Assembly: GCA_036676495.1 (NCBI GenBank)
Contig: JAKFCT010000101.1
Location: 1-57,790, forward strand
DNA: 57,790 nt
Source: Candidatus Sericytochromatia bacterium
GTDB lineage: Bacteria; Cyanobacteriota; Sericytochromatia; S15B-MN24; UBA4093
Direction: 5' to 3'
Part shown: positions 49,582-55,073 of the stretch, piece by piece
Layout: the number at the start of each line of letters is the position of its first letter
How positions within the stretch are numbered: position 1 is the first letter of the stretch
Notes under the pieces: generated by a model
The model's database searches: none
Told to the model about the DNA's origin: nothing
The model's input: the letters and a program-made list of their open reading frames with translations, nothing else
Made by a program: the position numbers and the translations under genes

Positions 49582-51555
49582 ATGGCCGATATGAACGTGA
49601 ACACCCCGCGCCCGATGACCGGGCCGCTGCGCCAGACGGCACCGCTGGGCACCTCTCCGCTCAATGCGGCTGCGGTCAACCTGCCGGTCGACGGTCCGCG
49701 CGGCACGCGGGATCTCATGGAAGCCAACCTCCCGACGGCCCTCCCCCCCGGAGCCTCGGCCCTCAGCGATCGCGCGGCAAGCAAGCTCTCCGGCCTCTCG
49801 TCGGGCGTGCGGCAGATGGTCCTCTCGGAAGGCATCACCGACGTCATGCCCACCCAGGCCAAGCAAGAGCAGATCCGGGCGAACCTCAAGCGCGAGATCA
49901 GCTCCCTGGTGCCCGGCGGCGTGACCATCGCCGACGCCGGCGCCAAGTGGTCGGCCTCCGACCTCGCCGCCCTCCACGACGTCATCAAGGCCATGCCCGC
50001 CGCCGATCGCTCGGCCCTCTCGGGGATGGTCTTCGAGCGGGACGGGGCGATCGCCATGAAGAGCGGAGACTACCATTCCAACGTTAAGAGCCTCTTCAAG
50101 GGCGAGGATCTGACCTCCGGATCCCTCGGCGGCGGCGCCTACTTCGGCCCCCAGTCCACCGGCGCCTCCGAGGAGAAGCCGGGCGGCGTCCGCGGCATGT
50201 TCACCAAGATCCGCGACTTCTTCCGCAACCTCGGCATCAAGCTCTTCAAGCCGCTGATGAACGAGCAGCAAATTGCCCAGTTCAAGAGCCAGGCGGCCGA
50301 AGGCAAGATCGTCCTCACCCACTCGGGCTCCATGGTCGCCAAGGACATGCTCGCCCACGAGATCGGGCACATGGTCCAGATGAACGGCGGCCGCTGGGAT
50401 CCCGCCAAGATCAAGGAGTTCTCGCAGCTCTCGGGCTGGACCGAGCAGTACCAGGACGGCACCCGCGAGACGGCGGACGGCATCGACAACCGCACGGGCG
50501 AGATGCTCAAGTACGAGTCGGGCATCGTCAAGCCTACCCGCGACGACAACTTCGTCTCGCAGTACGCCAAGGCCGACCCCATCGACGACTTCGCCGAGAG
50601 CTACCGGGCTTACCTCAACGACCCCGCGAGCCTGATGAAGGCCGCCCCCGAGAAGGCGCTCTTCCTGAACGCCCAGTCGGGCAAGTACACCCGCGCCGAG
50701 GTGGCCGAGTTCGCCAAGGCCGCCGGCGTCGACCTCCAGGACGTCTTCACCAACCTGGTGCTCGACGGCAAGCTCAAGCAGGAGACCCTCAACGCGATCG
50801 CCGACATGAACGGGGTGCAGGCCGACAAGCGCCGGATCTCGTCGGGCGCCGAAGCGCCCGCGGGAGACGCCCTGGCCGAGGCGACCTCCAAGATCACGGC
50901 CAAGGCCATCGTGGGCGACTCCGCCTTCGTCAACCAGCTCCTGACCAACCCTCAGCAGGCCCTGGGCGCCGAGCTCTGGGACAAGCTCTCCGCCGACGAG
51001 CAGGACATGCTCAAGGATCGCGACTTCGTCCGCGGCATCGTCTCGGACCTGGGAGCGGGGCGGGCCTCGGCGGCCTCGGCGGGCCTCAGCATCAAGATCG
51101 AGATTGCCCGCGAAGGCGTCCGGGACACCTTCGGCCTCCTGGGAGGCACCGATGGCAAGTCCCAGCAGTTCCGCACGGCGCTGGCCGCCGACCCCGAAGC
51201 CGCGCTCAAGGGTGCCGGACTCTGGGACAAGCTTCCCGAGGAGCTTCGCAAACCCTTCGTCGATCCCGCCAACCGCTCGGCCGTCCAGCAGCTCGCCCAG
51301 GCCATCTCGGCCAGCCAGCCGTCCGGCAAGATGGGCTGGCTGATCAAGGTGGGCAACCAGTCGGTCTCCCCCGAGGTGGCCGCAGCGAACCTCGAAAGCT
51401 ACGTGAAGCAGCTTCAGCCCGAGCACTTCAAGGCGTTCGCCGAGCGGCTCAACGATCCGGAGTTCGCCGGCAAGGGCGCTCAGGTCCTGCAGTCCGTCAT
51501 CAAGACGGGCCGAGCCCCTGCGATGGCGGCTGACGGTCCTGGCGGAGCCGTCTAG
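49582..51555 (+). CDS. Zincin-like metalloprotease domain fused to two NHLP/ComX-leader-like repeats (657 aa)
   Basis: AGGAGG RBS; HEIGH...FVSQYA..PIDDFAE; repeats FVNQLLTNPQQAL..LWDKL and FRTALAADPEAAL..LWDKL. Confidence 0.7.
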   Translation: MADMNVNTPRPMTGPLRQTAPLGTSPLNAAAVNLPVDGPRGTRDLMEANLPTALPPGASALSDRAASKLSGLSSGVRQMVLSEGITDVMPTQAKQEQIRANLKREISSLVPGGVTIADAGAKWSASDLAALHDVIKAMPAADRSALSGMVFERDGAIAMKSGDYHSNVKSLFKGEDLTSGSLGGGAYFGPQSTGASEEKPGGVRGMFTKIRDFFRNLGIKLFKPLMNEQQIAQFKSQAAEGKIVLTHSGSMVAKDMLAHEIGHMVQMNGGRWDPAKIKEFSQLSGWTEQYQDGTRETADGIDNRTGEMLKYESGIVKPTRDDNFVSQYAKADPIDDFAESYRAYLNDPASLMKAAPEKALFLNAQSGKYTRAEVAEFAKAAGVDLQDVFTNLVLDGKLKQETLNAIADMNGVQADKRRISSGAEAPAGDALAEATSKITAKAIVGDSAFVNQLLTNPQQALGAELWDKLSADEQDMLKDRDFVRGIVSDLGAGRASAASAGLSIKIEIAREGVRDTFGLLGGTDGKSQQFRTALAADPEAALKGAGLWDKLPEELRKPFVDPANRSAVQQLAQAISASQPSGKMGWLIKVGNQSVSPEVAAANLESYVKQLQPEHFKAFAERLNDPEFAGKGAQVLQSVIKTGRAPAMAADGPGGAV

Positions 51556-55073: not shown

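Follow-up and report, generated by a model that had tools for sequence, protein, structure and literature searches.

What is a prenyltransferase-fold enzyme doing between a zincin-like protein and a membrane-bound phosphatase in a genome of Candidatus Sericytochromatia, the non-photosynthetic sister class inside Cyanobacteriota? The question is raised by positions 49582-55073 of a stretch of 57,790 nucleotides (hereafter the window; contig JAKFCT010000101.1 of assembly GCA_036676495.1, forward strand), which has a G+C content of 66% and sits on contig C101 of a 4.1-Mb draft genome, designated G000 (other G-numbers are genomes, L-numbers single loci). Three genes of the window, named g1, g2 and g3 in their order, are co-oriented on the + strand, with 3 nt between g1 and g2 and 32 nt between g2 and g3:

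49582-51555, + strand: g1, open reading frame (ORF) of 657 aa, HExxH protein
51559-52497, + strand: g2, ORF of 312 aa, polyprenyl-synthase fold
52530-55073, + strand: g3, ORF of 847 aa, with transmembrane (TM), PDZ, polytopic, GAF and SpoIIE/PP2C parts in that order

These ORF coordinates bear out the tight, co-oriented packing described in the initial annotation of the sequence, which had read the three genes as a rewired ComQXP-like unit for prenyl-peptide signalling. An alternative, longer g1 would start from a GTG at 49498; 10 of 10 aligned g1 orthologues start at MAD or MS, equivalent to 49582. We lean slightly towards reading the unit as an isoprenoid-based peptide signal/receptor cassette of the ComQXP or PalPXQ kind, rebuilt in Candidatus Sericytochromatia. 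The descriptive findings, namely the motif pattern of the enzyme, the linkage of the three genes and a hypervariable cassette that cuts across them, are held with considerably more confidence than this signalling reading.

The central gene, g2, matches the Pfam family polyprenyl_synt (PF00348, 59.9 bits, cut-off 27), has no TM segment in a hydropathy scan and yields an AlphaFold model of 14 helices with pLDDT 94.1. The top Foldseek matches of this model were polyprenyl synthases (probability 1.0, TM-score 0.7-0.8), a comparison that cannot tell prenyltransferases from synthases of this fold; among PDB sequence matches, the uncharacterised Streptomyces synthase 3nf2 (1.3e-15) was followed in second place by Ord1 (9v4g/i, 9e-11). 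An Atlas search returned generic polyprenyl-synthase clusters only and was set aside as uninformative. Two motifs set g2 apart:

51796-51819, + strand: first Asp-rich motif of g2, D80, D83, D84 and D87 (DLTDDAQD), with no RRG after it
52168-52191, + strand: pseudo-second motif of g2, Q204-I-L-S207-D208-A-D-A (QILSDADA)

An alignment of 21 family members revealed 17 invariant columns, including D80, D83, D84, D87, G141, Q142, D145, K166, G168, Q204, D208 and D219. The four aspartates of the first motif, as well as Q204 and D208 of the pseudo-second one, are therefore invariant in 21/21 sequences; the RRG that normally follows the first Asp-rich motif in this fold is deleted in all 21; and the residue before D208 is S in 12, N in 4, G in 3, T in 2 and D in none. 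The fold, the DDAQDGD motif, the missing RRG and the degenerate QILSDADA noted in the initial annotation are thus all readable in g2. For ComQ, the available part of the published account (PMC5331326) states that only the second Asp of this motif is kept (NDxxx or GDxxx) and that a D at the first residue is harmful; g2 follows this rule as a pattern and not to the letter, the ComQ work having tested neither S nor T there. The working residues of StheQ, as given in the portion of the preprint at hand (bioRxiv 10.64898/2026.08.29.745113), are D85, D89, K174, Q212, N215 and D216, with metal at the first motif only. By motif reading, without alignment, the invariant g2 residues D83/84, D87, K166, Q204 and D208 correspond to StheQ residues, and the variable S207 (S, N, T or G) stands at the N215 position.

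Two ordinary polyprenyl synthases are encoded elsewhere in G000, with 219 and 202 bits vs 59.8 for g2, and g2 does not match them in tblastn at 1e-3; it does match, at 5e-15, the Q-like gene of a kinase-linked metagenomic locus described below (L066). In a quick FastTree of 46 rows, with several long branches flagged and without any ComQ, StheQ or PalQ, 39 Sericytochromatia sequences formed one clade (support 93) apart from the two ordinary synthases, and the kinase-linked genes of L066 and its copy L068 fell between this clade and the ordinary synthases; left out of the tree were the duplicate loci L034-L039, L044-L047 and L052 and the short or duplicate L062, L064, L067, L070 and L072. In our assessment, g2 probably belongs with the transferases of this fold and not with its synthases; its likeness to ComQ rests on the published motif rules and on L066.

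Linkage of the three genes was assessed by cross-matching the coordinates of whole-genome g1, g2 and g3 searches and reading the loci in 27 genomes of the same Sericytochromatia order, including G012, which was placed in no group. The genes stand in a row in 20/27 genomes (G000-G003, G005, G006, G008, G010, G011, G013, G014, G016-G018, G020-G023, G025 and G026), so that the neighbourhood search proposed with the initial annotation found the triad conserved and the arrangement is not due to chance. In G024, g1 and g3 lie 1.7 kb apart. G015 and G019 hold only a variant, composed of g2, a 950-1250-aa protein with a zincin core, and a 2-TM-GAF-PP2C protein without the PDZ/8-TM part, while both the triad and this short-PP2C variant are carried by G011 and G025; neither g1 nor a clear g2 was found in G004, G007 and G009. 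In G027, which belongs to another order of the class, g2 adjoins a short g3-like PP2C. A pattern scan of 185,579 species genomes with the family's own first motif, and hence biased toward the family, gave 25 loci as a lower bound (14 from Sericytochromatia, five from Cyanobacteria, one from Blackallbacteria, four labelled 'bacterium' and one from Polyangiaceae).

Comparison of close relatives revealed that a sharply bounded part of the unit is hypervariable:

51489-53555, + strand: hypervariable cassette, comprising the g1 tail (last ~20 codons), all of g2, and g3 residues 1 to ~342 (PDZ and TM1-8)

DNA identity between G000 and G001 or G002 is 83-91% through g1, 45-72% inside the cassette and 88-91% from 53556; it drops to 65% in the bin 51489-51636, and the boundaries at ~51489 and 53556 are sharp. 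Of 50 stretches aligned between the window and G001, none is less conserved than g2 (49.0%, the next being 53.5%). Six loci of one genus (G000, G001, G002, L059, L060 and L061) fall into five allele classes, with the following protein identities:

g1, all genus pairs: 83-91% protein identity
g3 residues 346-847, all genus pairs: 86-93% identity
g2, between allele classes: 45-58% identity
g3 residues 36-345, between allele classes: 56-60% identity
G001 vs G002, which share a class: g2 71%, g3 N-terminal part 90%

The C-terminal dipeptides of g1 in the six loci (AV, AM, GF, GF, MM and GL) differ between all classes (5/5) and agree in G001 and G002, the two loci of one class. In a different genus, L014 and L020 are 86% identical in g1 and 92% in the C-terminal part of g3, vs 49% in g2 and 53% in the N-terminal part of g3 (tails PPIA and PPGC), and the same cassette pattern recurs in another genus between L015 and L016 (tails PPFA and PPGI). 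Synonymous divergence (dS) and the ratio of nonsynonymous to synonymous change (omega), estimated by the Nei-Gojobori method, are listed below; dS of g2 is near saturation, which makes the ratios rough:

Flanks: dS 0.43-0.70, omega 0.07-0.18
g2 between classes: dS 1.1-1.5, omega 0.29-0.45
g3 N-terminal part between classes: dS 0.77-0.94, omega 0.40-0.50
g2 within the shared class: dS 1.42, omega 0.14
g3 N-terminal part within the shared class: dS 0.73, omega 0.08

The raised dS and the omega values indicate that the classes predate the flanks, that most of the difference between them is amino-acid change and that purifying selection acts on each. Public sequencing data agree with the boundaries: in run X2, a contig of 2148 nt spans precisely 51436-53583 and shows 185 differences; in run X4, one contig matches both flanks, its joints running from 51511 to 53112 and beyond; and letters 2058-3631 of a 4145-nt record lie on 53499-55072. 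Over four public runs, summed contig depth is lower at ~51606-53445 than on the flanks; gaps in cover were not used as evidence. Taken together, the enzyme, the sensor and the putative substrate tail vary jointly among close relatives in what looks like a set of pheromone "dialects".

The variable and the conserved parts of g3 correspond to different portions of its domain architecture:

52716-52880, + strand: PDZ of g3, residues 63-117 (PDZ_2, PF13180, 30.2 bits)
52917-53759, + strand: polytopic membrane region of g3, residues 130-410 (hydropathy scan)
53865-55067, + strand: GAF (residues 446-577) and SpoIIE/PP2C (641-846) of g3, by Pfam

Pfam and hydropathy together recover the order first read from the letters, that is, a TM segment, PDZ, many further TM segments, LFFRNRYDF, GAF and SpoIIE/PP2C. 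The SpoIIE match (PF07228) spans profile positions 2-191 of 192 at 148.8 bits, with the PP2C motifs GGDYYD, GDVAGKG, TDG and GDDIT present, and the GAF_3 match (24.7 bits) is slightly below its cut-off of 27. Hydropathy revealed nine membrane segments and a probable tenth at ~157-175, the conserved part of the membrane region being TM9, TM10 and RLFFRNRYDF; because K/R residues precede TM1, the PDZ is predicted to lie outside the membrane. In the domain-library scans no ComP-named family matched g3, and the nearest named match was a PrsK-like TM-plus-GAF model (44.2 bits, cut-off 300). No response regulator stands beside g3, whose output is SpoIIE/PP2C and not a HisKA_3 kinase. Three STAS plus HATPase_c_2 pairs of the STAS/RsbW type are encoded in G000, on contigs C41, C53 and C69, none of them near g3.

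A version of the unit with a kinase output was found on the metagenome contig L066, with a close copy in L068. Its order is a 69-aa ORF, a Q-like (g2-like) gene, a sensor kinase and a REC-GerE (LuxR-type) regulator. The 69-aa ORF contains a leader-like EFRAFLAAPD..LPEERR stretch and a Trp-containing tail (..GDSLMWP); it rests on its position, the leader-like motif and conservation in the very close copy only, and its BLASTP match to g1 (E 0.047) is suggestive, not significant. The start of the Q-like gene overlaps the end of this ORF; in its 329-aa product, which shares 30% identity with g2 (E 5e-18), the first motif reads DDVQDGD, RRG is missing and NDVSG is present. The kinase (800 aa, PDZ-TM-GAF-HisKA_3-HATPase_c) overlaps the Q-like gene by 4 nt and matches g3 residues 247-473 with 29% identity (E 6e-20), including the juxtamembrane R(Y/F)D(F/Y). 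Judged from its sequence, L066 is a comQXPA gene set in the order X-Q-P-A. Since enzyme family and sensor are both common to L066 and the window operon, the locus supports a 'rewired output', and the proposal of the initial annotation that a phosphatase stands in place of the kinase and its regulator is strengthened by a kinase/REC-GerE version with a homologous sensor.

The third component to be accounted for is g1, the candidate substrate:

50314-50781, + strand: zincin-like core of g1, residues ~245-400, with HEIGH at 259-263 and DDFAESY at 335-341
50914-51288, + strand: repeats U1 (residues 445-487) and U2 (526-569) of g1, resembling NHLP / LigA-type leaders of ribosomally synthesized and post-translationally modified peptides (RiPPs)
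51496-51552, + strand: C-terminal tail of g1, residues 639-657, ...KTGRAPAMAADGPGGAV

Orthologues of g1 conserve an N-terminal MAD..TG.LG motif, the zincin core, a helical C-terminal half and a Gly/Pro-rich tail; the AlphaFold model has a mean pLDDT of 67, falling to 27 in the last block. In the core, H259, E260, H263, D336, E339 and S340 are invariant in 11/11 sequences, Pfam Peptidase_Mx scores 23.6 bits, below its cut-off of 27, the Atlas leads are ATLF / Peptidase_Mx1 clusters (0.92), and a weak PDB profile match covers positions 318-356 (E 1.4). phmmer with g1 against PDB gave no match at E <=1. Foldseek with the whole g1 model gave none at E <=0.001 and thus no fold evidence for a zincin. 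From the sequence of this core, we infer a putative peptidase activity for g1. The N-terminal motif, more fully MAD.(I/M)N...(R/K)..TG.LG over residues 1-25 (49582-49656), is conserved among orthologues, and a similar TG.L motif opens three ~200-aa zincin-less relatives (P0065, P0068 and P0073); it might be a targeting or secretion signal.

In the C-terminal half, hhalign aligned U1 with U2 at a probability of 96.4% (E 1.1e-9, 43 columns), and three libraries put weak RiPP-leader matches on the second repeat (526-569), which constitutes a lead. The scores on g1 were 36.4 bits vs a cut-off of 40 for NCBIfam NH_RiPP_Os17, 20.3 vs 50.9 for leader_NHLP, and 21.3 vs 48 for Pfam Frankia_peptide (E 3.3e-4), and the PDB RiPP precursor SonA matched at E 0.35. 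A full profile search with this half retrieved 45 representatives at E <=0.001 among 1.84 billion proteins, and the predicted domain family is rare. Its relatives are mostly the C-termini of ~560-1040-aa proteins, three of them (P0065, P0068 and P0073, 197-210 aa) being without the zincin part; a word-indexed search for short stand-alone homologues gave one truncated fragment only. Beyond the repeats, the tail residues past the GG/AG motif are hypervariable: all 30 candidate-ligand tails compared end in a hydrophobic or small residue, most have a GG, AG or GGG motif followed by 0-6 residues, and some end in Cys-containing motifs, e.g. PPCM and PPGC, the Cys not being conserved. The idea, put forward in the initial annotation, that the free ComX gene has been replaced by a 657-aa protease-precursor fusion stands in part: there is no separate short gene and the leader-like repeats speak for it, but the leader matches are sub-threshold and the tail has no Trp.

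Two further arrangements of g1 were observed. At one locus (G018:C4:12500-28500, L084; see also L063), a single g2-g3 pair is preceded by four g1 paralogues in tandem, which differ in their tails (e.g. ..AFAGPIPGM, ..TDDGIGM and ..GPAKIPGM); several precursors before one enzyme is an arrangement shared with multi-precursor RiPP clusters. At L083 (G018:C67:6500-12500), g1 and g3 form a pair with 51 nt between them and no g2, and g1 ends in ..GQPGG, with nothing past GG.

A complex model of g2 with g1 residues 400-657 scored 0.69, the best of three controls scoring 0.00; this mark is reached by 58/80 solved complexes and 2/110 mismatched pairs, a calibration that is rough here, the alignments having been own-made. 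At least 66% of contacts recur between runs, with a partner pLDDT of at least 64, and the confident contacts join g2 153-156, 231-244 and 261-278 with g1 424-443 and 472-493. As a prediction, the model supports g1-g2 binding.

A second hypervariable cassette of G000 lies outside the window, on contig C9 (C9:10056-13577, equivalent to L086:3057-6578). Its enzyme is a 362-aa squalene-hopene-cyclase-C-domain protein (56.1 bits) encoded directly upstream of a paralogous TM-GAF-PP2C receptor. In this receptor, chosen as a control, the sensor N-half of G000 is 80% identical to that of G001 and 55% to that of G002, and the C-half 79-85%; the cyclase-like protein, 63% identical in G001 and 47% in G002, co-varies with the sensor. 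The variable DNA block (~11463-13674) reaches into the upstream cyclase-like gene and ends at the conserved accA/accD, and the cyclase-like gene adjoins the paralogous sensor gene in G001-G005, G008 and G009. At L086:828-3073 (+ strand, contig C9), the paralogous PP2C gene is faced at its 3' end by two convergent genes, one for a radical-SAM/SPASM protein of 363 aa and one for a protein of 398 aa. In five genomes, a g2-like synthase domain and, after it, the cyclase-like domain share one frame of 660-675 aa, a natural fusion of both enzyme types that are paired with the sensor phosphatases:

G037:C80:20368-22242: synthase-cyclase fusion frame
G018:C3:8602-10488: synthase-cyclase fusion frame
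G032:C4:73741-75474: synthase-cyclase fusion frame
G036:C186:1803-3614: synthase-cyclase fusion frame
G030:C1:2938784-2940589: synthase-cyclase fusion frame

An isoprenoid enzyme and a sensor N-half thus co-vary twice, which strengthens the idea of a matched isoprenoid signal and receptor and at the same time keeps its small-molecule rival alive.

In the reading that we favour, g2 would be a ComQ-type all-alpha prenyltransferase, able to bind a prenyl diphosphate through the retained first Asp-rich motif and unable to elongate it with isopentenyl diphosphate. It would dock on the leader-like helical repeats of the C-terminal half of g1 and modify the flexible C-terminal tail, presumably by prenyl transfer. 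The specificity-bearing signal would be the short variable end past GG/AG, with or without release by the zincin domain of g1; it would be exported and read by the variable PDZ and 8-TM sensor of g3, possibly through recognition of the tail by the PDZ. The sensor would in turn govern the conserved 2-TM-GAF-PP2C output, which may dephosphorylate a phosphoprotein encoded elsewhere. A broader and more specific version, in which Sericytochromatia use pherotype-like isoprenoid recognition cassettes whose interchangeable enzyme, a ComQ-type prenyltransferase in the window and a squalene-cyclase-like protein on contig C9, co-diversifies with the PDZ/polytopic sensor of a receptor phosphatase, the signal of the window cassette being a non-Trp-prenylated g1 end of a few residues read by the PDZ, is possible but must be called tentative.

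Several observations weigh against the favoured reading. No conserved Trp or other nucleophilic side chain was found in the g1 tails, the tail of the window itself being without Trp; the one semi-conserved tail position is W in 3/6 genus loci and M in 3/6, including that of the window, and the residues following GG are aliphatic. Consequently, the Trp-C3 chemistry of ComQ, PalQ and StheQ cannot be the general reaction. Every match of g1 to NHLP-clan leader models is under the curated cut-off. g1 has no TM segment in the hydropathy scan and no signal peptide, no exporter was seen in the operon, and neither a C39 peptidase nor an ABC exporter was seen beside it. In the complex model, the confident g1 interface flanks the first repeat and excludes the tail, and the g2 interface residues are not more variable than the rest (41% vs 49% mean pairwise identity, no meaningful difference). 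Ord1 occupies only ranks 28-48 in the Foldseek list of g2, amid ordinary synthases, and the likeness to Bacillus ComQ and ComP is judged from published motif rules and from L066. Linkage, too, has its exceptions: G016, G018 and G022 also hold a g1-g3 pair without an intervening g2, their g2 copies lying elsewhere in the genome; g1 adjoins g2 in 0/14 genomes of other orders of the class; and the g2-like genes at L051 and L052, from other orders, have unrelated neighbours. The sensor family of g3 also occurs without g2, G000 having at least five paralogues of the sensor, some with a kinase and one with a PP2C output, none of which adjoins a g2, and the C9 control indicates that the g2-linked receptor is not alone in having a variable sensor. 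With eight SpoIIE matches in G000, a STAS partner cannot be assigned to g3, and a stress-type gene downstream of g3 was rejected as evidence of output (see below). The ComQXP-like reading of the initial annotation is therefore supported in part, by the motifs, the triad, L066, the leader-like repeats, the complex model and the cassette, and is weakened by the lack of a tail Trp and of a link to that downstream gene.

These points give room to other explanations. One is that g2 makes a small-molecule or lipid isoprenoid signal read by g3, with g1 as an accessory protease or scaffold and not the substrate. Such a role would agree with the second-best PDB sequence match of g2, to Ord1 (E 9e-11), which has the same first and pseudo-second motif pattern; with the C9 cassette, in which a cyclase-like enzyme is paired with no g1-like gene; with the five genomes that join synthase and cyclase-like domains in one frame; with g1 tails devoid of a conserved nucleophilic side chain; and with a polytopic sensor, which suits a lipid ligand. 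However, it leaves aside that g1 adjoins g2 in both architectures, in 20/27 genomes plus variants, that the complex model favours g1-g2 binding (0.69 against 0.00 for the best control), that the g1 tail follows the allele class and that a Trp-tailed 69-aa ORF overlaps the start of the Q-like gene in L066; on this evidence we regard it as unlikely. CaaX-type prenylation is known to anchor proteins to membranes, and g2 might in the same manner lipidate the C-terminus of g1, which would then be an intracellular, membrane-anchored zincin acting on or with g3 at its cytoplasmic face in a regulated-proteolysis or stress module and not in cell-to-cell signalling. The size of g1, its invariant HExxH..E residues and its lack of an export signal, the g1-g3 pairs that persist without an adjacent g2, and the tails with Cys motifs (e.g. 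PPCM and PPGC) fit this explanation. But the tails do not conserve the Cys, a PDZ predicted to lie outside the membrane belongs to the variable part of g3, and allele classes that predate the species split and evolve under purifying selection within a class typify recognition systems, not housekeeping stress modules, so that we consider this account quite unlikely.

It is also conceivable that the variability reflects nothing but relaxed constraint, g2 being a decaying pseudo-enzyme and the sensor N-half a fast-evolving membrane region with no specificity relationship between them. The variation of the sensor N-half in the C9 paralogue, and the mere 71% identity of g2 between G001 and G002, could be explained in this way; the 17 invariant g2 columns in 21 sequences, which include every residue expected to bind diphosphate, the within-class omega of 0.08-0.14, the sharp cassette boundaries with raised dS inside and the retention of g2 across the order speak against it, and this explanation appears highly improbable.

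The closest known system to the favoured signal/receptor cassette is Bacillus ComQXPA, which likewise has a trans-IPPS-fold prenyltransferase, with a first Asp-rich and a pseudo-second motif, beside a polytopic receptor, and in which the enzyme, the substrate end and the receptor sensor are polymorphic together and the output part is conserved. Tortosa and colleagues are said to have identified, in 2001, comQ, comX and the 5' part of comP as the variable parts. The window differs from ComQXPA in its SpoIIE/PP2C phosphatase output with no adjacent response regulator, in lacking a separate ~55-aa ComX gene, the candidate being the tail of the 657-aa protein encoded upstream of the enzyme, in a tail without conserved Trp, in a receptor with PDZ and in its diderm host from Cyanobacteriota. 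The available sections of PMC4008528 deal with Bacillus comQXP polymorphism and pherotypes, and report a 2014 census in which comQXPA-like loci occur in Firmicutes only. In PalPXQ of Paenibacillus alvei, according to the accessible part of its description (PMC10853753), a kinase is combined with a precursor of the NHLP type and with an all-alpha prenyltransferase; this enzyme modifies the C-terminal residue, a reaction enhanced by the leader domain. The system shares with the window the set of receptor, leader-type precursor and all-alpha prenyltransferase; PalX, however, is short and ends in Trp, and PalP is a histidine kinase, whereas the leader-like matches of g1 are sub-threshold and lie inside a much larger protein. 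The pair StheQ/StheX of Sphaerobacter thermophilus comprises a ComQ-family enzyme outside Firmicutes with a Q-x-x-N-D motif and a 69-aa precursor with Trp near its C-terminus; in the part of the preprint available (bioRxiv 10.64898/2026.08.29.745113), stheX lies downstream of stheQ and no receptor is described. L066, which shares the Q-like gene and the sensor with the window operon, looks like the same kind.

For the separate components, other parallels exist. Ord1 is described, in the available text of PMC12510300, as an all-alpha indole prenyltransferase with structures PDB 9V4G-J. Among PDB entries of characterised function, Ord1/XiaM, with the same two motifs, comes closest to g2 in sequence (E 9e-11; Foldseek identity 26-28%), but it uses a small-molecule acceptor, belongs to an antibiotic pathway and has neither a receptor nor a precursor gene beside it. 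PP2C phosphatases of the RsbU / SpoIIE / SiaA type resemble g3 in carrying the SpoIIE catalytic domain behind a sensory module, and STAS/RsbW-type pairs are present in G000; unlike in those systems, there is no STAS or kinase gene in the window operon, and the sensory module of g3 is a PDZ-polytopic-GAF arrangement that is paired with kinase outputs in paralogues. DegS, RseP and Ctp/Tsp are PDZ sensors of C-terminal peptides, with the PDZ outside the membrane; the PDZ of g3 is likewise predicted outside, and the short-PP2C variant loci are without PDZ.

The surroundings of the unit were also inspected. A promoter and terminator scan of 49200-55500 gave 0 promoter-like and three terminator-like sites, with no excess over shuffles. 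Past g3, the nearest gene is as follows:

55398-55697, - strand: KGG-repeat gene (GsiB / LEA_5-like), 99 aa, PF10685 with 67.5 bits

It lies 325 nt past g3 on the opposite strand, hence convergent with it, and is followed by lexA and then groES/groEL. The gene is 88-99% identical in G002, G003, G006, L060 and L061 but was not found between g3 and lexA in G001, G005 and G008 (3/6 family loci). Owing to this convergent orientation and inconsistent presence it was rejected as output evidence, and the suggestion made in the initial annotation that it might represent a general-stress output finds no support. Directly upstream of g1, at 48370-49377 on the + strand, a 335-aa protein with no Pfam or NCBIfam match is encoded; it is kept before g1 in G001, G002, G003, G005, G006, G008 and L061 with 51-82% identity, was not found at the G010 locus (L013), and may belong to the unit as a fourth component in the family of G000. 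Farther upstream, at 33970-35283 on the - strand, the window encodes a right-handed beta-helix protein of 437 aa (PF13229, 27.5 bits); its identity to G001 is 53.5%, and of the 50 aligned stretches only g2 diverges more.

Among the papers listed by full-text literature searches (in one case the 12 best of 574), none links ComQ to Sericytochromatia or to a receptor of the PP2C type and, in agreement with the initial annotation, none describes the arrangement. For a long time, peptide prenylation of the ComQ type was taken to be a feature of Firmicutes alone, to which the 2026 preprint, in its available part, adds one Chloroflexi enzyme-peptide pair for which no receptor is known. If the favoured reading is true, the window would place a ComQ-type system in a third, diderm phylum, with a phosphatase in place of the kinase, with a precursor fused to a protease-like domain and with an acceptor that cannot be the usual Trp. 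Under the broader, tentative version, kin or quorum signalling of the peptide-pheromone type would be met here for the first time in Cyanobacteriota, and such signalling would have a Ser/Thr phosphatase as the receptor output for the first time. The at least five allele classes, which differ in enzyme, tail and sensor and are ~90% identical in the remainder, constitute a natural experiment on specificity, and they suggest social or kin-recognition signalling in an uncultured lineage of almost unexplored physiology.

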